Positions 396 to 8,133 of a stretch of DNA of 64,000 bases are shown here, piece by piece. Position numbers and translations under genes: made by a program. Every line of letters starts with the position of its first letter. The stretch's first letter is position 1. The notes under the pieces were generated by a model that had not been told where the DNA came from, ran no database searches, and saw nothing but the letters and a program-made list of their open reading frames with translations. Location: NCBI GenBank assembly GCA_018828585.1, contig JAHJVW010000080.1, positions 10,931 to 74,930 of the forward strand, read 5' to 3'. This stretch comes from Bacteroidota bacterium. Lineage in GTDB: Bacteria > Bacteroidota > Bacteroidia > Sphingobacteriales > Sphingobacteriaceae.

Positions 396-851
396 CTAAA
401 ACGAAGTTAACAAATTAACATTGATGATGTAGCTGTCAGGATTTATTGAATAACCCTATTTTGAAAATAAATTGTAAACAAAGAATTAAATAAATACCAA
501 ACAAAAACAATCCCCTACTGCTTTAAAAAAAGTAGATCATGCAAAAAAAACAATTCTTGTTGCCCAACTGTCCTTAATCTTCAGCGCAGCGTGAAAAAGA
601 TTAATGAATAGGGAAGAATCTGAAGACTCTTTTCCATTATAAAATCCGTTGAGAGCGCTTCGCTAAACGCAAAGGATAGTTTTGAGAATAAAAAGGATAT
701 TAACGATCTTAACTACTAAAAATTTAACATGACACCAACTCACCCAATAGCTAAAAATGTAATAGGCACACCTTATTTGCTTGGTAAACAAATATTAAAC
801 TTACAATTAAAGATCAGCTTATTGATCTATCAGATTGCTACATCGCTAATC

Positions 852-2498
852 TTAAACACTTTGGGTTTCCAAGCTTAATTCGGCGACCAACCCAATGGTA
901 GACAGCGTAAACCAAAAAGTGCTTCCCTTTCCTAATTCACTATCCACACCTATTTGACCATTATGTTTTTTTATGATTTCTGCAGAAATGTAAAGTCCAA
1001 GTCCTAAACCAGAATATTTACTACCACTATTATCCGCTTGGTAATAGCGGTCAAATAAATAAGTTATTTTTTCGGGAGAAATACCAGGACCTTTATCTAT
1101 AACAGATACTTTGGCCATATCATCAACTTTTTCAATCTTGATGTTGATTTCTTTTGAGTCGGGTGCATATTTTACAGCGTTAGTAATAAAATTAATTATC
1201 ACCTGATTAATCCTTTCAGCATCTGCGTAAACCTGGAGGTCCATATCTCCTTCGGTAAGGATAGTATGTATGCCTTCAATACTTATTGAATGGCTACACT
1301 CTTCAATTGCGTGAGCTAGTGTAAATAACTTTTGATCTAACAAAAGTTGTCCTTCATTAACGTTGCTGGTGTCTAATAGGTATTTAATAAGTATGATCAC
1401 TTTATCTAAGCTATTGTTAGCCAAATCTATCAGACTAGGCAACATAGAAGTAGGTTCATTTTTTAACCTGTTCAACAATTGTAAGGTAGCTTTTAAACTG
1501 GTAATTGGCGTTTTAAGCTCATGACTTGCAATACTTATAAAATCATCTTTTTGTTGTTGTAACAGTCTAAGCTCGTGAATATCTGTAGCGGTGCCTGACC
1601 ATAACTGTACTTTGCCTTCTTCATTTTTAATAGGCATGATACGAATTAGATGCCAGCGTTCCATACCATCAAAACGTCTTTGTCGATTTTGAAATTCCCC
1701 ACCTATATTATTTTTCAATATCAATTTGTATGCATCCAAAGTAGATTGCATATCATCAGCGTGAACGACTGACAGCCATCCCCAACCTTTACTATGATCA
1801 AAATCAAGACCTGTATAATCATACCATCGTCGGTTATAAAAAGTAACTTCTCCGTCAATAGTGTTTGTCCATGCAATTTGTGGGGTTGTTTCCATCATTT
1901 CTCGAAACTGTTTTTCACTTTCTGCCAAAGCTTTTGTACGCTGTTCTACGCGTTCTTCCAATTGCTGATTCGATAATAAAAGATCGGCATTAATCATCCT
2001 AACTTTTTCTTCCTGCTTCATCAGCAATTGAGAATTTTCATGAAGTTCTTTGTTGGCAATGATTAGCGCCGCCGTCTGCTCTTTTAATTTTTCAGCAATA
2101 ACTTCCTTTTCTTTCCTTTCTTCGGCATCTGTTAATGCCCGTTCTATTTTTTGGATTAATGAAAATAATTTATCCTTTGATGCATAATCAGTAACACCAT
2201 TTTTAATTAACTCAACAGCATTTTCTTCTCCTATGATACCAGAAACGATAATAAAAGGGATATGTGGGGATTTTTCTTGTTTGATTTTAAACGCCGTAGC
2301 TGCATCAAAAGCTGGGAGTGAGAAATCGGATAATATTAAATCAGGATTGAAGTGTTGTAGAGCATACTCAAACGTTACTCGTGTTTGAACAATCTCAAAG
2401 GAGAAAGAAAATCCAGATTTTTTCAGTTCGCGGATAAGCAAATTGGCATCATGCTGATTGTCTTCGATTATAAGTATTTTAAAATCGGCTTTCATCAA
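852..2498 (-). CDS. Hybrid sensor kinase REC-coiled coil-PAS/PAC-HisKA-HATPase
   Basis: N-terminal receiver (ILIIEDN...DLILSDFSLP...KD), S-helix LEERVEQRTKAL, PAS (W...VHADD), H-box ASHELKTP, N box NAVKY, G boxes DKGPG and GLGLGL. Confidence 0.92.
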   Translation of the reverse strand: MMKADFKILIIEDNQHDANLLIRELKKSGFSFSFEIVQTRVTFEYALQHFNPDLILSDFSLPAFDAATAFKIKQEKSPHIPFIIVSGIIGEENAVELIKNGVTDYASKDKLFSLIQKIERALTDAEERKEKEVIAEKLKEQTAALIIANKELHENSQLLMKQEEKVRMINADLLLSNQQLEERVEQRTKALAESEKQFREMMETTPQIAWTNTIDGEVTFYNRRWYDYTGLDFDHSKGWGWLSVVHADDMQSTLDAYKLILKNNIGGEFQNRQRRFDGMERWHLIRIMPIKNEEGKVQLWSGTATDIHELRLLQQQKDDFISIASHELKTPITSLKATLQLLNRLKNEPTSMLPSLIDLANNSLDKVIILIKYLLDTSNVNEGQLLLDQKLFTLAHAIEECSHSISIEGIHTILTEGDMDLQVYADAERINQVIINFITNAVKYAPDSKEINIKIEKVDDMAKVSVIDKGPGISPEKITYLFDRYYQADNSGSKYSGLGLGLYISAEIIKKHNGQIGVDSELGKGSTFWFTLSTIGLVAELSLETQSV

Positions 2499-2586: not shown

Positions 2587-3027
2587 CTAGTGCTGTGGCT
2601 CACTTAAAATCATCCAGTAAATTCCAATCTCTTTTATAGCAGAAAAAAAGTTATCGCTATCAACAGGTTTTACTATGTAACTATTAGCACCCAAAGCATA
2701 GCATTTTTTTATGTCGGGGTCTTCTTTAGATGAAGTAAGAATTACCACAGGAATAGATTTTAAGTCTGGATCAGATTTGATTTTTTCCAGCACTTCCATA
2801 CCGTTTACTTTGGGCATTTTAAGATCCAATAATATCAGTTTTGGATTTTCCTTGCTTTTTCGTGAAGCGTATAATCCTTTGCAAAAAATAAAATCAAGTG
2901 CTTCCGCTCCATCTTTTACATGAAGTAATTTATTGACAAACCCACTTTTTGTAAGTGCCCTGATAGTGAGCATAGCATCATCTTCACTATCTTCCACAAA
3001 TAATATTTCAACTTCGTCGTAATTCAT
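2587..3027 (-). CDS. Single-domain response regulator, Rcp1/phytochrome-associated type
   Basis: ILFVEDSEDD...LILLDLKMP...IPVVILTSS...GANSYIVKP; no output domain. Confidence 0.9.
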   Translation of the reverse strand: MNYDEVEILFVEDSEDDAMLTIRALTKSGFVNKLLHVKDGAEALDFIFCKGLYASRKSKENPKLILLDLKMPKVNGMEVLEKIKSDPDLKSIPVVILTSSKEDPDIKKCYALGANSYIVKPVDSDNFFSAIKEIGIYWMILSEPQH

Positions 3028-3037
3028 TGTTTATGTT

Positions 3038-5251
3038 TTAATTGTTTATAGCTGGTAAGCTGAAATAAAAACAGGTACCTTCATTTAGTATTGATTCTGC
3101 CCACACAGTTCCCCGATGTCGACTAATTATTTTTTGTACAATAGCTAGGCCAATTCCAGTACCCTCAAATTCTTCATGCGAATGTAAGCGTTGAAAAACT
3201 CCGAAAAGTTTATCATAATATTGCATATCAAAGCCAGCTCCTTCATCTTTAACAAAATAGACTATCAAGTTATCTTTTTCATAAGCACCAATTTCTATAT
3301 TAGTCATTGGTTTATATTTCGAATATTTGATAGCATTGGAAATAAGATTAATCCACACCTGTTTAATTAAAGACTGATCTCCTTGAGCAGCAGGAAGCAA
3401 TTTGATGGTAAATGCTGGTAAGTTTTCACCTTGGTCAAATATTAATTCTTTTTTTACCAATTTTACAAGGTTAATCATATTAATGTTCGAAACAGAGACT
3501 TCTTTTCTGCCTAATTTGGAAAATGCTAGCAAATCATCAATAAGGTTACCCATTCTCTTTGAATTATGCATAATGGAGTGAAGTACTTTTTTACCATCAT
3601 TATCCAATTTTTCTGAATAATCCTCTATCAGAATTTTTGAATATCCATTAATCGCTCTGATAGGTGCCCGTAAATCGTGTGATACGGAATAGGAAAAAGA
3701 GCCCAACTCTTTATTAACAGATTCTAATTGTGCGGTACGTTCTATTACTTTATTTTCTAATTCATCATTAAGTTTACGGATATCATCTTCTGCCTGCTTA
3801 AGTTCTCTGTTCGCATAGCCTAACTCATCAGCTCTTTTTTCTTTCTCTTCATTCTGAAAAGCAAGCTCTTTATTAGCAATAACTAATTCGGCTGCTCGGT
3901 GTTCTTTCTCTTCATTTTGAAAAGCTAGTTCTTTGTTCGCAATAACTAATTCGGCTGCTCGGTGTTCTTTCTCTTCATTTTGAAAAGCTAGCTCTTTGTT
4001 CGCAATAACTAATTCGGCTGCTATATTCTCTTTCTCTTCATTTTGAAAAGCCAGTTCCTTGTTCGCAATAATTAATTCTGCAGCCCGGTTTTCTTTCTCT
4101 TCATTTTGGAAGTGCAGCTCCTTGTTCGCAATAACCAATTCTGCTGCCCGGTTTTCTTTCTCTTCATTTTGGAAGTGCAGCTCCTTGTTCGCAATAACTA
4201 ATTCTGCTGCCCTATTCTCTTTCTCTTCATTTTGAAAGAGCAGCTCCTTGTTCGCAATAACTAATTCGGCAGCCCGATTCTCCTTCTCTTCATTTTGAAA
4301 AGCCAACTCTTTATTAGCAATAACTAATTCGGCTGCTCGGTGTTCTTTTTCTTCATTTTGAAAAGCTAGCTCCTTGTTCGCAATAACTAATTCTGCGGCC
4401 CTATTCTCCTTTTCTTCATTTTGAAAAGCCAACTCTTTATTAGCAATAACTAATTCTGCAGCCCGGTTTTCTTTCTCCTTATTTTGAAATTTTAATTCGG
4501 TATTGGCAATCTCCAAAACAGACGCCTGTTTTTCCTTCTCTTTATTTTGTATAATAAGTTTCTTATTGGCTATTCTCAGCTCTTTTGCTTTTTGTGCGGT
4601 AATATCTCTAGCTGCAGCAAAAACCCCTAATACATTCCCTTTATCATCTTTATAGATAGATGCATTGTATAATACATCTGTTAATGTGCCATTTTTATGA
4701 TGAATAGTTAACGGGTAATCTGAAACAAATTCTTTTTCAAAGACCTGCTTATATCCTTCACGAGCTTTTTGTGGTTCAGTGAAATAATCAGAAAAATCTG
4801 TTCCAATTAGTTTTAACCTTGGTACACCAGTTATTTTTACTGATGCTTCATTTACATCCGTAATTTTCCCTTCTGGAGAAATAGTCACAAGTGGATCAAG
4901 CGATGCTTCAATCAAACTTCTTGCATACATGGAAGCCTGTTTTATCGTATTGCTAATTACTTCAAGTTCTTTACTTTCTTTTACCCTTTTTTTCTTTTCT
5001 GCATTTTGAAAGGCAAGTTCTTTATTCGCAATAATTAATTCTGCTGCCCTATTTTGTTTTTCCTCATTTTGGAAGAGCAACTCCTTATTAGCAATCACCA
5101 ATTCTGCTGCTCTGTTTTCCTTCTCTTTACTTTGAAAAACAAGTTCTTTATTAGCGATAGCTAACTCCACCGCCCTAACTTTTTTCTCCTGTTTCTGAAG
5201 TGCAAGCTCTCTATTAGCAATAACAAGTTCATCCGATTTATTTTTCTCCAT
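3038..5251 (-). CDS. Cytoplasmic PAS histidine kinase with long 21-aa tandem coiled-coil repeats
   Basis: PAS (SLIEASLDPLVTISPEGKITDVN...AARDIT), H-box SYSVSHDLRAP, N box NAIKY, GTGIGL; no TM helix or signal peptide. Confidence 0.92.
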   Translation of the reverse strand: MEKNKSDELVIANRELALQKQEKKVRAVELAIANKELVFQSKEKENRAAELVIANKELLFQNEEKQNRAAELIIANKELAFQNAEKKKRVKESKELEVISNTIKQASMYARSLIEASLDPLVTISPEGKITDVNEASVKITGVPRLKLIGTDFSDYFTEPQKAREGYKQVFEKEFVSDYPLTIHHKNGTLTDVLYNASIYKDDKGNVLGVFAAARDITAQKAKELRIANKKLIIQNKEKEKQASVLEIANTELKFQNKEKENRAAELVIANKELAFQNEEKENRAAELVIANKELAFQNEEKEHRAAELVIANKELAFQNEEKENRAAELVIANKELLFQNEEKENRAAELVIANKELHFQNEEKENRAAELVIANKELHFQNEEKENRAAELIIANKELAFQNEEKENIAAELVIANKELAFQNEEKEHRAAELVIANKELAFQNEEKEHRAAELVIANKELAFQNEEKEKRADELGYANRELKQAEDDIRKLNDELENKVIERTAQLESVNKELGSFSYSVSHDLRAPIRAINGYSKILIEDYSEKLDNDGKKVLHSIMHNSKRMGNLIDDLLAFSKLGRKEVSVSNINMINLVKLVKKELIFDQGENLPAFTIKLLPAAQGDQSLIKQVWINLISNAIKYSKYKPMTNIEIGAYEKDNLIVYFVKDEGAGFDMQYYDKLFGVFQRLHSHEEFEGTGIGLAIVQKIISRHRGTVWAESILNEGTCFYFSLPAINN
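3810..4590 (-). repeat. Tandem 63-bp / 21-aa coding repeat, about 13 units (consensus AELVIANKELAFQNEEKENRA)
   Basis: 10 near-identical units, 2 diverged units and 1 degenerate unit, counted in the translation; coordinates approximate. Confidence 0.95.
4990..5235 (-). repeat. N-terminal block of 4 more 21-aa repeat units
   Basis: DELVIANRELALQKQEKKVRA / VELAIANKELVFQSKEKENRA / AELVIANKELLFQNEEKQNRA / AELIIANKELAFQNAEKKKRV; coordinates approximate. Confidence 0.9.
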
Positions 5252-5573
5252 AATAGGTTATTACAAATAATACTATTTGTCCCAGAAGTTAACCTTTTTT
5301 ATCCAAGTAACTGTTACATTTTTTAAAAAGAGATTCCATTATTCATTACTTTTAAAAGCTTATCATCTTTTGTTATGAAAAACCGAGGGCTTTCTGGTGA
5401 GTAGCTATTGAAAGAAAATACAATAGTTGGATTTAAATAACATACAATGATCAATTCATTGAACGACTGAAAGGAATAGCTTTCAAATCCTCATTAAGGA
5501 AATATTGATAATCGAAATTGAGATACATTCTTATGAATACTGAACTGATTTTGTTAACTCCTGTAAAAACAAA

Positions 5574-5603
5574 AACGGGGCGACTTTTTAATGACACCCC
5601 GTT
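5574..5603 (-). terminator. Intrinsic terminator of the S9 peptidase gene
   Basis: Minus strand AACGGGGTG...CGCCCCGTT stem followed by a T run, just after the stop at 5623. Confidence 0.7.
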
Positions 5604-5622
5604 GAAACTAATTTTATTGAAT

Positions 5623-8133
5623 TTATTTCCCGTTTTGCGGGATCTCCTTATCCATCTCTAAAATATCTACCTGCGACGAGCCGGAAAAATCACCTAACAG
5701 GTAATTGTTAAAATAGTCAGCTAAACGCCAAAACATGTATTCTGTCATATCGCCATATCCATGTCTCTGACCAGGAACTAAAACATAATCGAACCGCTTA
5801 CCAGCTTTAATTAATGCATCCGCCACTCTGATCGTCCCTGCTGGGTTGACGTTATTATCAATATCACCTGTCATCAGCATTAAATGCCCTTTCAGATTTT
5901 TAGCAATTTCGAGGTTCTTATCTATGGAATATTTAAAAGTGGTATCCTTTTCAGTGACCACTTCTTTCACTCCATGGTGTTTTTCGCTCCACCAACGATT
6001 ATAAATGCTATTATCGTGATTTCCCGATTCTGATACGGCTACCTTAAAGAAATCAGGGTAAACAAACATCGCTGCCGAGGACATGAAGCCGCCACCCGAG
6101 TGACCTGTAATACCAACTTTATTGACATCTATAAATTTAAAACGGTCGGCTAATTGTTCTACCGCAGCTTTCTTATCCGCCAAACCATAATCGCGAAGGT
6201 TTCCATAACCATAAGTATGATACCATTTAGAACGGGCAGGGTTTCCGCCTCTGTTTCCTACCGTGATGACGATATATCCAAATTGCGCCAGTCGGTCTAT
6301 CCTATTCATGCTAGTTCCGAAATTTTTGTTTACCGCCTCTGTTTGAGGACCAGGGTAAACATATTCTATAATTGGATACTTCTTACTCGGGTCGAAATCG
6401 AAAGGCTTATACATGACGCCATAAATATCGGTAATGCCATCGTCTGCTTTTACTTTAAATGGTTCTGGGAATTTATAACCGGTTTGCATCAACAACGATA
6501 AATCTGTTTCTTCTAAATCCATCACCTTATTACCCAACTGATCAAATAAGACAGCTTTAGGTGCGGTATTTACTCTAGAGAAATTATCGATAAAGAACTG
6601 GTTTTCATCATCCATATTTACTTGATGGTCAAAATCACCTTTGTTCAATAACTTCATCCCTGTACCATCAAACTTAATGCTGTATAAATGCAAGTAATAA
6701 GGGTCCTCGTTTACTTCTCTTCCGTTTGCGGTGAAGTATAAAACCCTATTTTTTTCATCAACATTTACAATTGCTTCGCAATGGAAAGCACCTTTGGTAA
6801 TCTGATTTTTTAAATTTCCGTTTCCATCAAATAAATAAAAATGACCCCAACCGTCTCTTTCGCTCCAATGAATAATTTCTTTTCCATTATCGATTAAAGC
6901 GGGCTGTTGAACCTCTATATACGTGTTAAATCGCTCGGGAATGATGGTTTTAATTTCGGAAGTGTTAATGTTTAAAGAACAAATATCCACCCGCTTTAAA
7001 TCTCTACTGGTACGTTGAAAATAAAAGGTGCTATTATTCCCCATCCAAATAGAAGGACGAAACTCGTTATCTCTGTCTTTATTTAAATTCTCTTTACGCC
7101 AAACGTTAATGGTTTGATCTTTAAAGGCATCTGTATTTAATGTTTTATAAGTTTTGGCAGCAAAATCAAATAAAACAAATTCATCAATAGGACCTTCCTT
7201 TTCTCCTGGCATTTGGTATTTATAAGTTTCTAAGGTTGGGCGACCTTTGCCCGTACTATTGATGACCCATAAATCTTTCACTTTTCTTTCGTCACTTCGG
7301 TCTAAAACGAAGTGTTTTGAATCTGGGGACCAAACAGCAAAAGCGCCTCTTCTCTTTTTCTGATTTTTGGCATACTCCTCATTATTTTCACCATAACCGC
7401 TATCGCCGCTTCCGTAAGAATAATACTTTACGCCATCTTTTGTCAATTGATGCTCTACAATGGTGCTATCATCTTCGTTTTTGACTGCTTTTTTGTAATT
7501 CTCTTTATCCATCCAATAGATATTATAATTTCTAGAAAAGATAATTGCTAAAGAATCTGGCGCAACCGAAGCCCATTTTGGTTTTGCTTTAGGTTTTTGA
7601 TAATTTTCTATTTGCGTTAGCTTTTGGTTAGCTAGTTCATAGTTAAAAGAAAAGATTTTCTTCTGAAGCGAATCGGCAGCTTTTTTATCTTTCCGATCAG
7701 GTTTCAGCTCATCTATAGAACTTTTTATTTCAAAAGTCACACTCTTTTCATCCTTAGAAAATTTAAGCTCTTCTATGGGTAAATGTTGCGCATCGAAAGC
7801 ATCACGAACCACCAAAGTAATTTCGGCAGCTAATTTATCCAGATCGAATAAAGTATTTTTACGTTTTGCAACAGGGTCAACGATATACCATTGTTTACCT
7901 GAAGGACTTTCGTATGGATACCAAAAACGGTGACTCAATTTCAACCAATGTGGATCGGCATTGGTTGAGAAAATTAGCTTTTTTAGTTTATTGGTCGAAA
8001 ACCTTGATGCCAACTGATAATTAGCTTTAGGTGAAGTCTCAACATTTTCTGTGATGGTGAAAGTTTTATTTTGGGCCGCTGCTGTAAAGCAAATGAGCTG
8101 CCCAACAAAGATTAGTTTGTAAAATTTATTCAT
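5623..8133 (-). CDS. S9 family peptidase, dipeptidyl-peptidase IV-like, secreted
   Basis: Signal peptide; DPPIV_N-like region; nucleophile motif GHSGGG; D (DNNV) and H (QRHG) of the triad. Confidence 0.88.
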   Translation of the reverse strand: MNKFYKLIFVGQLICFTAAAQNKTFTITENVETSPKANYQLASRFSTNKLKKLIFSTNADPHWLKLSHRFWYPYESPSGKQWYIVDPVAKRKNTLFDLDKLAAEITLVVRDAFDAQHLPIEELKFSKDEKSVTFEIKSSIDELKPDRKDKKAADSLQKKIFSFNYELANQKLTQIENYQKPKAKPKWASVAPDSLAIIFSRNYNIYWMDKENYKKAVKNEDDSTIVEHQLTKDGVKYYSYGSGDSGYGENNEEYAKNQKKRRGAFAVWSPDSKHFVLDRSDERKVKDLWVINSTGKGRPTLETYKYQMPGEKEGPIDEFVLFDFAAKTYKTLNTDAFKDQTINVWRKENLNKDRDNEFRPSIWMGNNSTFYFQRTSRDLKRVDICSLNINTSEIKTIIPERFNTYIEVQQPALIDNGKEIIHWSERDGWGHFYLFDGNGNLKNQITKGAFHCEAIVNVDEKNRVLYFTANGREVNEDPYYLHLYSIKFDGTGMKLLNKGDFDHQVNMDDENQFFIDNFSRVNTAPKAVLFDQLGNKVMDLEETDLSLLMQTGYKFPEPFKVKADDGITDIYGVMYKPFDFDPSKKYPIIEYVYPGPQTEAVNKNFGTSMNRIDRLAQFGYIVITVGNRGGNPARSKWYHTYGYGNLRDYGLADKKAAVEQLADRFKFIDVNKVGITGHSGGGFMSSAAMFVYPDFFKVAVSESGNHDNSIYNRWWSEKHHGVKEVVTEKDTTFKYSIDKNLEIAKNLKGHLMLMTGDIDNNVNPAGTIRVADALIKAGKRFDYVLVPGQRHGYGDMTEYMFWRLADYFNNYLLGDFSGSSQVDILEMDKEIPQNGK

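Follow-up and report, generated by a model that had tools for sequence, protein, structure and literature searches.

Tandem arrays of a 21-residue S-helix-like unit as a proposed regulatory input of bacterial histidine kinases

The array kinase and its gene cassette

The window, the whole stretch of 64,000 nucleotides analysed here from a Bacteroidota bacterium, carries a three-gene cassette on the minus strand (Table 1), the first gene of which encodes a histidine kinase of 737 residues. The protein is composed, in order, of four repeat units, a PAS domain, 13 further units, an S-helix, and the DHp/CA kinase core. As in HisKA-class sensor kinases, Pfam detects a HisKA domain with the phospho-acceptor His together with a HATPase_c domain, and the phospho-acceptor, His525 (3677‒3679, within SHDLRAP), is invariant. 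No transmembrane segment was found in the protein, where the highest 19-residue Kyte-Doolittle mean is 0.83. The open reading frame, Pfam, hydropathy, and motif spacing therefore bear out the architecture proposed by an earlier sequence-only reading, which described a kinase lacking membrane segments with four repeats, a PAS domain, about 13 more repeats, and DHp/CA.

Table 1 Positions of the features of the array kinase and its cassette in the window
Feature	Position	Strand	Basis
Histidine kinase gene, opening the three-gene cassette	3038..5251	minus	ORF, 737 aa; Pfam PAS, HisKA, HATPase_c
N-terminal array, units 1-4 (aa 5-88)	4988..5239	minus	ANxEL motif at 21-aa spacing; TRF array 4984-5159
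PAS domain (aa 111-221), ending in RDIT motif, embedded in the array	4589..4921	minus	Pfam PAS_9/PAS_4/PAS
Main array, units 5-17 (aa 221-493), 273 aa	3773..4591	minus	ANxEL spacing; predicted helical (AlphaFold2)
Array core, ten near-identical units 7-16, RAAELVIANKELAFQNEEKEN type	3836..4465	minus	Unit alignment; TRF period 63/189
Degenerate terminal unit 17, RADELGYANRELKQAEDDIRK	3773..3835	minus	Conserved in orthologues
11-residue insert LNDELENKVIE (aa 494-504)	3740..3772	minus	Heptad register listing; Arg-to-His distances
Canonical S-helix core ERTAQLESVNKEL (aa 504-516)	3704..3742	minus	Direct reading; signature per PMC1592074
HisKA/DHp domain (aa 517-581)	3509..3703	minus	Pfam HisKA, E 3.5e-14
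HATPase_c catalytic domain (aa 624-734)	3050..3382	minus	Pfam, E 2e-21
Stand-alone receiver, 146 aa, second cassette gene	2587..3027	minus	Pfam Response_reg
Receiver-controlled kinase (REC, coil, PAS, HisKA, HATPase_c), third cassette gene	852..2498	minus	Pfam
Single repeat unit QTAALIIANKELHENSQLLMK in the REC-PAS linker of the third gene	2016-2078	minus	Unit match

A sequence search of the PDB matched kinase cores to residues ~500‒735 (e.g., 8f71, E = 5e-36), and no structure in this search covered the repeats; the PAS domain searched alone gave no match to the PDB at E ≤ 0.01. Over the repeats, neither Pfam, searched with the 737-residue protein, nor the best 25 NCBIfam families listed gave a match, and none of the listed families was an S-helix family. 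An identity as a bacteriophytochrome was rejected, since the resemblance to 9ys3 and 8uph is confined to the kinase core (residues 503‒732) and both GAF and PHY are absent in Pfam, so that there is no PAS-GAF-PHY module. Two 836-residue open reading frames in the window are unrelated to the array kinase, and a promoter and terminator scan of 600‒5700 gave results no better than shuffled sequence. A look for RNA evidence listed no run.

Of 80 related loci in Bacteroidota, about 76 carry the cassette of array kinase, 146-residue receiver, and receiver-controlled kinase; beyond it, no conserved neighbours were observed, and the flanks differ among these loci. The receiver gene starts 10 bp downstream of the array kinase, and a 70‒98% identical copy lies directly downstream in 76 of the 80 loci. 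This protein seems to be the cognate receiver encoded nearby, with putative phosphotransfer from the kinase. Orthologues of the third gene carry one or two repeat units at the same place in the REC-PAS linker.

The 21-residue unit and its relation to the S-helix

The motif A-N-x-E-L recurs at an exact spacing of 21 residues, four times before the PAS domain and 13 times after it, giving 17 tandem units as counted on this short-read metagenome-assembled contig. Tandem Repeats Finder independently detected a period of 63 with 10.4 copies at 3837‒4489 (score 842), together with a period of 189 that scored 947; over the N-terminal units, it reported a further array of 63-bp period with a weaker signal. 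The proposed tandem unit of exactly three heptads in about 17 copies is thus confirmed. Near-identity is limited to units 7‒16, which differ by 0‒3 residues and 2‒14 nt per unit, and units 1, 2, 5, 6, and 17 are degenerate. Unit 17 is 1‒4 nt from the last unit of two related loci (L003 and L002), and a degenerate terminal unit occurs across this kinase subfamily. The main array contains no Pro and one Gly and has a net charge of -17.

At the DNA level, the two HFQ units 11 and 12 (4088‒4213) are 2 nt apart and the two EHR units 14 and 15 (3899‒4024) are 3 nt apart, as the sequence-only reading had noticed for these neighbours. Units 7 and 9, 126 bp apart, show 4 nt differences, and the remaining unit pairs show 6‒14 differences per 63 nt. 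Over units 7‒16, pS is 0.62 and pN is 0.044 (pN/pS 0.07). Since the units are near-identical as protein and diverged as DNA, the array is mostly old and kept by purifying selection, with a few recent duplications. The suggestion of recent 63- and 126-bp duplications therefore holds for units 11/12, 14/15, and 7/9, but the high pS indicates that the amplification is not mainly recent.

Conservation was computed over 658 units with 650 distinct DNA sequences. Positions L5, A8, K19, E11, L12, Q15, E18, E4, A2, N9, R1, I7, and F14 are 89‒100% conserved, with values of 91% for Arg1, 90% for Ile7, and 89% for Phe14, which is replaced by Tyr in a further 9%. The variable positions 3, 6, 13, 17, and 21 form the b/f/c face if L5 is placed at 'a'. 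Two flanking stripes, A8/Q15/R1 and N9/N16/A2, are both conserved, and the heptad register is therefore ambiguous. We prefer the register with L5 at 'a' and R1 at 'd' because of the direct-fusion kinases described below and the pattern of variable positions. The register with Asn9 and Asn16 at 'a', which is continuous with the ERT S-helix of the present kinase, is less favoured, and both registers are possibly used. In a helical-wheel reading, the conserved hydrophobic residues Ile7 and Phe14 are located ~130‒200 degrees from the L5/L12 seam, and neither register places them in the a/d seam. Their conservation is not accounted for by a simple coiled coil of two strands.

The S-helix signature, with ERT at heptad positions c-d-e and an upstream Asn at 'a', occurs once in the 737-residue kinase, as Asn495 and Glu504-Arg505-Thr506, with Asn495 ten residues before Arg505. 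Both residues 494‒520 and the array have the defining form of an S-helix, a heptad helix directly N-terminal to a dimeric output domain. The literal ERT/Asn signature is missing from each 21-residue unit; the units read (K/N)21-R1-A2, with Glu and Thr absent. In many relatives, the last unit (RAAELIIANKEL) stands directly before the H-box with an Arg-to-His spacing of 20, the same as that of the S-helix core here. Because of these direct fusions of unit and H-box, R1 of the unit is shown to be positionally equivalent to the Arg of ERT. The unit seems to be a derivative of the S-helix and not a literal S-helix, and the homology that had been proposed from the sequence is upheld, since the last unit of these relatives takes both the place and the spacing of the S-helix before the H-box.

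In the present kinase, the distances from the unit Arg to the His are 52 and 73 (mod 7 = 3), in contrast to 20, 41, and 48 (mod 7 = 6) in the direct fusions. The 11-residue insert shifts the array by four residues (+4 stutter) from the heptad phase of the S-helix and DHp. Across the family, the number of residues between the last unit and the output domain falls into discrete classes modulo 7, for kinases as well as for GGDEF and HD-GYP, and the family kinases are mainly of two phase classes with respect to the H-box.

The AlphaFold2 monomer model of the 737-residue kinase contains helices at residues 2‒97, 219‒414, and 422‒545. The long array has low pLDDT values (45‒60) and an unexplained break at residues 415‒421, which is possibly a fold-back of the monomer. 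In the model of a PAS-less relative, a single helix at residues 3‒175 runs through the H-box (pLDDT 63‒81), and the helix is thus predicted to be continuous from the array into DHp. The array is presumably a dimeric parallel coiled coil. Of the long continuous coiled coil that had been proposed, the helix is supported by prediction, but its heptad phase with the S-helix is broken by the 11-residue insert.

Orthologues, copy number, and the wider family

Most orthologues have no PAS domain, and their whole N-terminus, apart from ~4 leading residues, is an array of 3‒26 units. The PAS domain is present in seven of the 80 related loci and is an optional insert. Since the PAS domain is optional and most orthologues consist of array and kinase only, the array must be more than the rod between sensor and kinase core that the sequence-only reading had considered. 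In 66 of the 150 top family representatives, the array is the sole input region. Close relatives with 86‒93% identical genes have 11, 13, or 15 units, with orthologous edge units and reshuffled interior units; the comparison of copy number across orthologues that had been suggested thus reveals variation in steps of 21 residues.

The unit also precedes GGDEF and HD-GYP domains in several phyla and probably RsbU-type phosphatases, and the family comprises about 1,000 protein clusters at 50% identity (E ≤ 1e-10). Literature searches for unit sequence strings returned nothing relevant, and searches on the S-helix combined with tandem, array, or repeat found no paper; the array-bearing family is apparently undescribed. 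Its proteins are without a Pfam model. Polar or psychrotolerant isolates make up many of the named carriers, namely Paenisporosarcina antarctica, Glaciimonas sp., Labilibaculum antarcticum, Flavobacterium degerlachei, and Pedobacter cryoconitis. Carriers of neither kind are Desulfurivibrio sp. and a Clostridia MAG. The link to cold habitats is only anecdotal and is set aside as evidence because taxon sampling is biased and there are counter-examples.

Proposed mechanism and comparison with known systems

We propose, with a probability of about 0.5, that the array is a metastable parallel coiled coil ("poly-S-helix") whose packing sets the kinase output and which is stutter-coupled in this subfamily. 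The proposal builds on the observed anatomy, conservation, phase classes, and copy-number variation and on the predicted helicity; we infer the antagonistic coupling, the stimulus, and the route of phosphotransfer. In each subunit, the repeats would form one long unbroken α-helix continuous with helix 1 of DHp. Since DHp is a parallel homodimer, the most likely arrangement of the two subunit helices would be a two-stranded coiled coil in parallel orientation, with a rod of ~40 nm for the main array. The core seam of each unit would consist of three apolar layers (Leu5, Ala8, and Leu12) followed by three polar layers (Gln15, Lys19, and Arg1), and the polar layers may make the rod only marginally stable by design, with the kinase being regulated through its packing state. 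Because of the 11-residue stutter before the ERT motif, the array and DHp of this subfamily would be in different heptad phases, and tight packing of one should thus loosen the other, resulting in a kinase/phosphatase switch. The embedded PAS domain of the window's protein may exert a further bias on the rod. Where PAS is absent, as in the majority, the rod would be the only input and therefore probably responds to a physical variable (temperature or ionic strength) or a partner protein; a physical-sensor role of the array is plausible. The phosphoryl group may be transferred to the single-domain receiver encoded next to the kinase, to the receiver of the downstream kinase, or to both. Whole units would be gained or lost by unequal recombination, by which the phase is kept and the stability or cooperativity of the rod should change. 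Against this model, the wide copy-number variation could equally mean that length hardly matters.

It is possible, if rather doubtful, that the array is a portable, self-sufficient physical sensor (of temperature or ionic strength, for example). Several phyla would then have joined this "poly-S-helix" module to HD-GYP phosphodiesterases and diguanylate cyclases as well as to kinases, and probably to RsbU-type phosphatases. The copy number, which unequal recombination would alter by 21 residues at a time without loss of phase, would set the switching threshold.

The occurrence of 3‒26 copies with the same kinase core suggests a weak length constraint, and coiled-coil stalks are common in kinases (PMC6798134). 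Both observations would fit a passive stalk, in which the rod serves for constitutive dimerisation or spacing and control comes from the PAS domain, where present, or from partner receivers. However, a spacer needs neither 89‒100% conservation at 13 of the 21 positions, including non-core positions, nor polar core layers, and the low pN/pS would be unneeded as well. In addition, nothing is located at the far end of the rod in most orthologues, and the unit replaces the S-helix, itself regulatory, beside the H-box. We consider such a stalk unlikely.

The stripe of Ile7 and Phe14, conserved yet off the L5/L12 seam, might instead be exposed for binding a partner or another rod, leading to bundles, filaments, or avidity signalling. 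Candidate partners in this multivalent docking or self-assembly would be a receiver protein or the downstream kinase through its single unit, and the presence of one or two units in the REC linker of that kinase is in line with it; identical repeats could in principle also pair out of register by whole units. On the other hand, the cassette proteins otherwise show no covariation with copy number in the data gathered, and the acidic nature of the array disfavours self-association without counter-ions, which makes such docking or self-assembly rather improbable.

The window comes from a contig of a short-read metagenome-assembled genome, and in Logan assemblies (four runs from two studies) the array interior (3895‒4427) is broken into pieces of 55‒148 nt. 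Each of the listed pieces is identical to the window, and together they cover nearly the whole array, although they do not establish the order and count of the units; no alternative joints were found among the unitigs listed for the four runs. The exact 737-residue protein is recorded on three contigs of 50‒200 kb, of which the one shown belongs to GCA_018820515.1. In one isolate, the scaffold is interrupted within the array by a gap of 342 N. Since arrays are present in complete isolate genomes (CP060294.1 and CP183230.1) and dozens of other assemblies, the existence of this kind of array is beyond doubt. The short-read origin, the broken unitigs, and the gapped scaffold would suit an assembly artefact or a functionless slippage product, at least with respect to copy number, but this is very improbable given the recurrence of 3‒26-unit arrays in complete genomes of isolates and across about 1,000 protein clusters, the in-frame units with their low pN/pS, the identical product on three contigs, and the 100% unitig matches without alternative joints.

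No sensor domain can be recognised in many histidine kinases and cyclic-di-GMP enzymes, which raises the question of how they are controlled. The commonest form of the present family has only variable copies of one conserved S-helix-like unit before the catalytic module. The family represents a natural experiment on coiled-coil length, phase, and stability versus enzyme output, with natural variants of 3 to 26 units, two main H-box phase classes, and the presence or absence of PAS. If the rod is indeed the sensor, it would explain widespread "sensor-less" signalling proteins and offer a simple tunable input module for synthetic signalling. In practical terms, such arrays break short-read assemblies.

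In E. coli TolA, the in-frame repeat copy number is reported to differ between strains and to modulate stress tolerance (PMC3477136), but this protein belongs to the envelope and is no signalling enzyme, and the TolA repeat has no relation to the 21-residue unit. The order of a kinase followed by a receiver-controlled kinase resembles the branched LvrA/LvrB cassette of Leptospira (PMC13269768). In NCBIfam, the core of the first gene is matched best by LvrA and the REC domain of the third by LvrB. Orthology was rejected, since the scores are far below the family cut-offs (263 vs 1200 bits and 134 vs 500).

Poly-HAMP arrays occur in bacterial AskA and fungal group III hybrid kinases, some of which are proposed osmosensors (PMC13446029). 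As in the array kinases, the input of these soluble kinases is a long array of near-identical coiled-coil modules with intragenic amplification. However, HAMP is a two-helix module of ~50 residues that forms four-helix bundles and has two alternating types, whereas the unit described here is a single 21-residue helical segment without a connector. With no HAMP match in Pfam, no connector in the unit, and only one Gly and no Pro in the array, an identity as poly-HAMP was rejected.

BvgS-family kinases are controlled by marginally stable or antagonistic coiled-coil registers (PMC4810494, PMC5829827), and the function of YF1 depends on a heptad-periodic linker length (PMC6798134). The resemblance to our model is that the choice between kinase and phosphatase mode depends on the register of the helix before DHp and on its marginal stability, with two antagonistic registers in one linker. 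Their linkers are not built of repeats, whereas here the linker from PAS to His is repetitive and 306 residues long, and most members of the array family have no upstream sensor.

In the original description of the S-helix (Anantharaman, Balaji & Aravind 2006, PMC1592074), one segment of about 40 residues, or 5 heptads, connects two domains, and Arg/Thr mutants of the S-helix do not switch off (PMC1592074). The array shares with it a heptad helical connector directly before DHp, GGDEF, and other dimeric outputs, with a basic core residue and a nearby Asn. In contrast to the single S-helix, a 21-residue derivative is here amplified 3‒26 times and often constitutes the entire N-terminal region, with ERT replaced by (K/N)-R-A.

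Repeat architecture and assembly of the window kinase

The window kinase contains an A-N-x-E-L motif at a spacing of exactly 21 residues, four times upstream of its PAS domain (aa 5-88) and 13 times downstream (aa 221-493). Tandem Repeats Finder independently detected a 63-bp period (10.4 copies, 3837-4489), a period of 189 bp with a higher score, and, at 4984-5159, a second, weaker array of 63-bp period. The motif spacing and these periods confirm the tandem 21-residue array proposed in the sequence-only reading. The 273-residue main array (units 5-17) contains no proline and one glycine. Outside the three tabulated domains, no Pfam model matches the protein, and the NCBIfam families listed match best over stretches that fall almost wholly within the kinase core. 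No hydrophobic segment was found in the protein, the highest 19-residue Kyte-Doolittle mean being 0.83.

Domain organization of the window kinase
Feature	Residues	Window position	Strand	Basis
Histidine kinase, 737 aa		3038..5251	minus	ORF
PAS domain	111-221	4589-4921	minus	Pfam
HisKA	517-581		minus	Pfam
HATPase_c	624-734		minus	Pfam

The PAS domain is of an unusually conserved type, and copies 75-86% identical to it are themselves tandemly repeated, 6-8 domains per array with a period of 117 aa. The proteins compared were P0003, P0005, P0009, P0012, P0032, P0056, P0069, and P0070, and PAS-array proteins are attributed to distant phyla (Geomonas, Kofleriaceae, Rudaea, Dormibacteraeota). By sequence, the PAS domain matched no solved structure at E ≤ 0.01.

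The AlphaFold2 monomer of the window protein shows predicted helices at residues 2-97, 219-414, and 422-545, with low pLDDT (45-60) over the long array. In a 364-aa PAS-less direct-fusion relative, residues 3-175 are predicted as one helix that passes through the H-box (pLDDT 63-81); DHp helix 2 and the catalytic domain come after it. As an ideal coiled coil, the main array would by arithmetic be ~40 nm long (273 residues, 0.1485 nm per residue).

The window derives from a metagenome-assembled genome (GCA_018820515.1), and an assembly artefact was considered. Eight public runs, drawn from two studies, contain 61-86% of the words sampled from stretch 3700-4700. Logan contigs from four of the runs agree exactly with the window on either side of the array and fragment at 3895-4427 into 55-148-nt pieces; those listed are exact window matches and cover the array almost end to end, and no other way of joining the units was reported among the contigs of the four runs. 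The pieces show that the unit variants exist; the order or number of units is not thereby proven. The existence of this kind of array is secure, because complete genomes of isolates (Pedobacter sp. PAMC26386, Mucilaginibacter sp. X5P1) and many other assemblies carry like arrays. On an isolate scaffold of P. cryoconitis DSM 14825 (locus L059), a 342-N gap at ~5510-5850 lies within the orthologous kinase's array and splits the gene, illustrating that such arrays defeat short-read assembly.

Kinship with the S-helix and heptad phase

The S-helix is defined by an Asn followed ten residues later by ERT (PMC1592074). One canonical S-helix in the window protein, with Asn495 and E504-R505-T506 ten residues on, fits this definition. 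Many relatives lack a separate ERT segment, and their last unit continues directly into the H-box (EKEKRAAELLIANKELEQFTYIASHDL). These direct fusions have an Arg-to-His spacing of 20, as does ERTAQLESVNKELGSFSYSVSHDL of the window protein. This shared spacing supports both the alignment of unit and S-helix drawn in the sequence-only reading and a heptad register with R1 (unit residue 1) at 'd' and L5, L12, and K19 at 'a'. In this register, the variable unit positions land on the b/c/f face, and the core of each unit would thus comprise six layers, of which L5, A8, and L12 are apolar and Q15, K19, and R1 polar.

Among the kinases of the set, His lies at distances from the last good unit that fall into discrete mod 7 classes. 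Two of these predominate, class 6 in several kinase subfamilies (n = 87) and class 3 in the window's subfamily (n = 100); classes 2 and 5 are minor. GGDEF and HD-GYP fusions are likewise phase-locked in small samples. Compared with the direct fusions, the window's subfamily carries 32 extra residues, composed of the degenerate unit 17 and the 11-residue LNDELENKVIE, a difference of four heptads plus a 4-residue stutter.

Distribution, copy number, and age of the units

A 10-unit query against 1.84 billion representatives at 50% identity retrieved 1,610 clusters at E ≤ 1e-3, of which 1,005 also pass E ≤ 1e-10. Sixty-six of the top 150 representatives are an array and a kinase core alone; in others the array is joined by REC or PAS, or the protein terminates in a GGDEF or HD-GYP domain. 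The unit is a portable module. Named carriers belong to Bacteroidota, Bacillota (Paenisporosarcina antarctica, Planococcus sp., one Clostridia MAG), Pseudomonadota (Glaciimonas sp., one Methylococcales MAG), and Desulfobacterota (Desulfurivibrio sp.). More output domains probably exist than those listed here, since certain array proteins 900-1,030 aa long (P0245 cluster, P0270, P0360) have long regions unmatched by seed domains, and the P0245 cluster includes a protein with the annotation RsbU-type serine phosphatase.

Scanning with the non-repetitive kinase core (aa 494-737) yielded 80 loci with 72-95% identical cores in Pseudopedobacter, Pedobacter, Mucilaginibacter, Ferruginibacter, and other Bacteroidota. 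A 146-aa receiver (70-98% identical) directly follows the kinase in ~76 of them, and the next gene starts with a related receiver domain. Genes flanking these three are not conserved across the related loci compared, and the three thus form a self-contained cassette. The REC linker of the third gene (REC-PAS in the window) carries one or two units: a single unit QTAALIIANKELHENSQLLMK at 2016-2078 (minus strand) within the window's receiver-controlled kinase (852..2498), and one or two fuller units in Chitinophagaceae orthologues. In several Mucilaginibacter loci (L035, L064, L067, L069, L075-L077, and L081 listed), the third gene is only ~212-240 aa and encodes a receiver and a short helical stretch that contains an H-box-like motif (SHQLRGPIANILG), without an ATPase domain; the tail after the array in Flavobacterium degerlachei P0202 resembles this stretch. 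Immediately past the end of the upstream S9 peptidase gene, at ~5560-5605 (minus strand), lies a GC-rich inverted repeat (ACGGGG...CCCCGT) with a T-run behind it. The pair resembles an intrinsic terminator, in which case the cassette would have a promoter region to itself (5252-5560). A consensus terminator scan did not report this repeat, probably owing to its long loop.

The PAS domain is present in only 7 of the 80 loci; PAS-less orthologues consist of M-x-K-N, n units, the S-helix, and DHp/CA, and nothing else. With the terminal degenerate unit included, n in orthologues ranges from 3 to 26 (mode 6-7). N-terminal and main-array units number 4+13 in the window, 4+11 in L003 (a Pseudopedobacter MAG locus, 93% nucleotide identity), and 4+15 in L002 (86% identity, same synteny). 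The first three and last main-array units of these loci are orthologous (1-12 nt differences) and the interior units have no one-to-one counterparts, the signature of unequal recombination or conversion within the array.

Units 7-16 of the window protein differ at 0-3 residues versus 2-14 of 63 nucleotides. Since their mean per-site differences are 0.62 (synonymous) and 0.044 (non-synonymous; ratio 0.07), the array is mostly old, with strong purifying selection on the peptide and a few recent duplications added. By DNA, the closest pairs are 11/12 (2 nt) and 14/15 (3 nt), together with 7/9, whose members lie 126 bp apart and differ at 4 nt; these are the units on which the sequence-only reading based its recent 63- and 126-bp duplications. 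Among 658 units from the 80 loci (650 distinct as DNA), L5, A8, K19, E11, L12, Q15, E18, E4, A2, N9, R1, I7, and F14 are conserved at 89-100%, and positions 3, 6, 13, 17, and 21 are variable. All six codons of both Arg and Leu are in use.

A possible signaling rod

As DHp domains form parallel homodimers, parallel pairing would also be expected of the two array helices. A core in which apolar layers alternate with polar ones, one of them an Arg that corresponds to that of the S-helix, suggests a metastable rod. Mutation of the S-helix Arg blocks switching off (PMC1592074). In BvgS-family kinases, the choice between kinase and phosphatase mode is set by the marginal stability of the coiled coil ahead of DHp and by antagonism of two registers in one linker (PMC4810494, PMC5829827), and the output of YF1 depends on linker length with heptad periodicity (PMC6798134). 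By analogy, in the mechanism that we consider most likely, array packing would be coupled to the S-helix and DHp. The stutter in the window's subfamily would render the array-DHp coupling antagonistic, and gain or loss of whole units would keep the phase and alter stability. Since most family members carry no other signal-sensing part, the rod itself is the candidate input, answering a physical variable or a partner. We consider the parallel-paired metastable rod likely and its role as an input speculative.

Ile7 and Phe14, conserved hydrophobic residues far from the L5/L12 seam, and both conserved stripes beside the seam (A8/Q15/R1 and N9/N16/A2) do not fit this simple mechanism. Their conservation could reflect two registers, x-da-like packing, higher-order bundles, or partner docking.

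No Pfam model and, by sequence search, no solved structure covers the array units. Tandem arrays of an S-helix-like unit were not found described in the literature covered, which leaves out most subscription journals, and a prior description may exist elsewhere. Known already are the S-helix (PMC1592074), coiled-coil linkers, and poly-HAMP arrays (PMC13446029).
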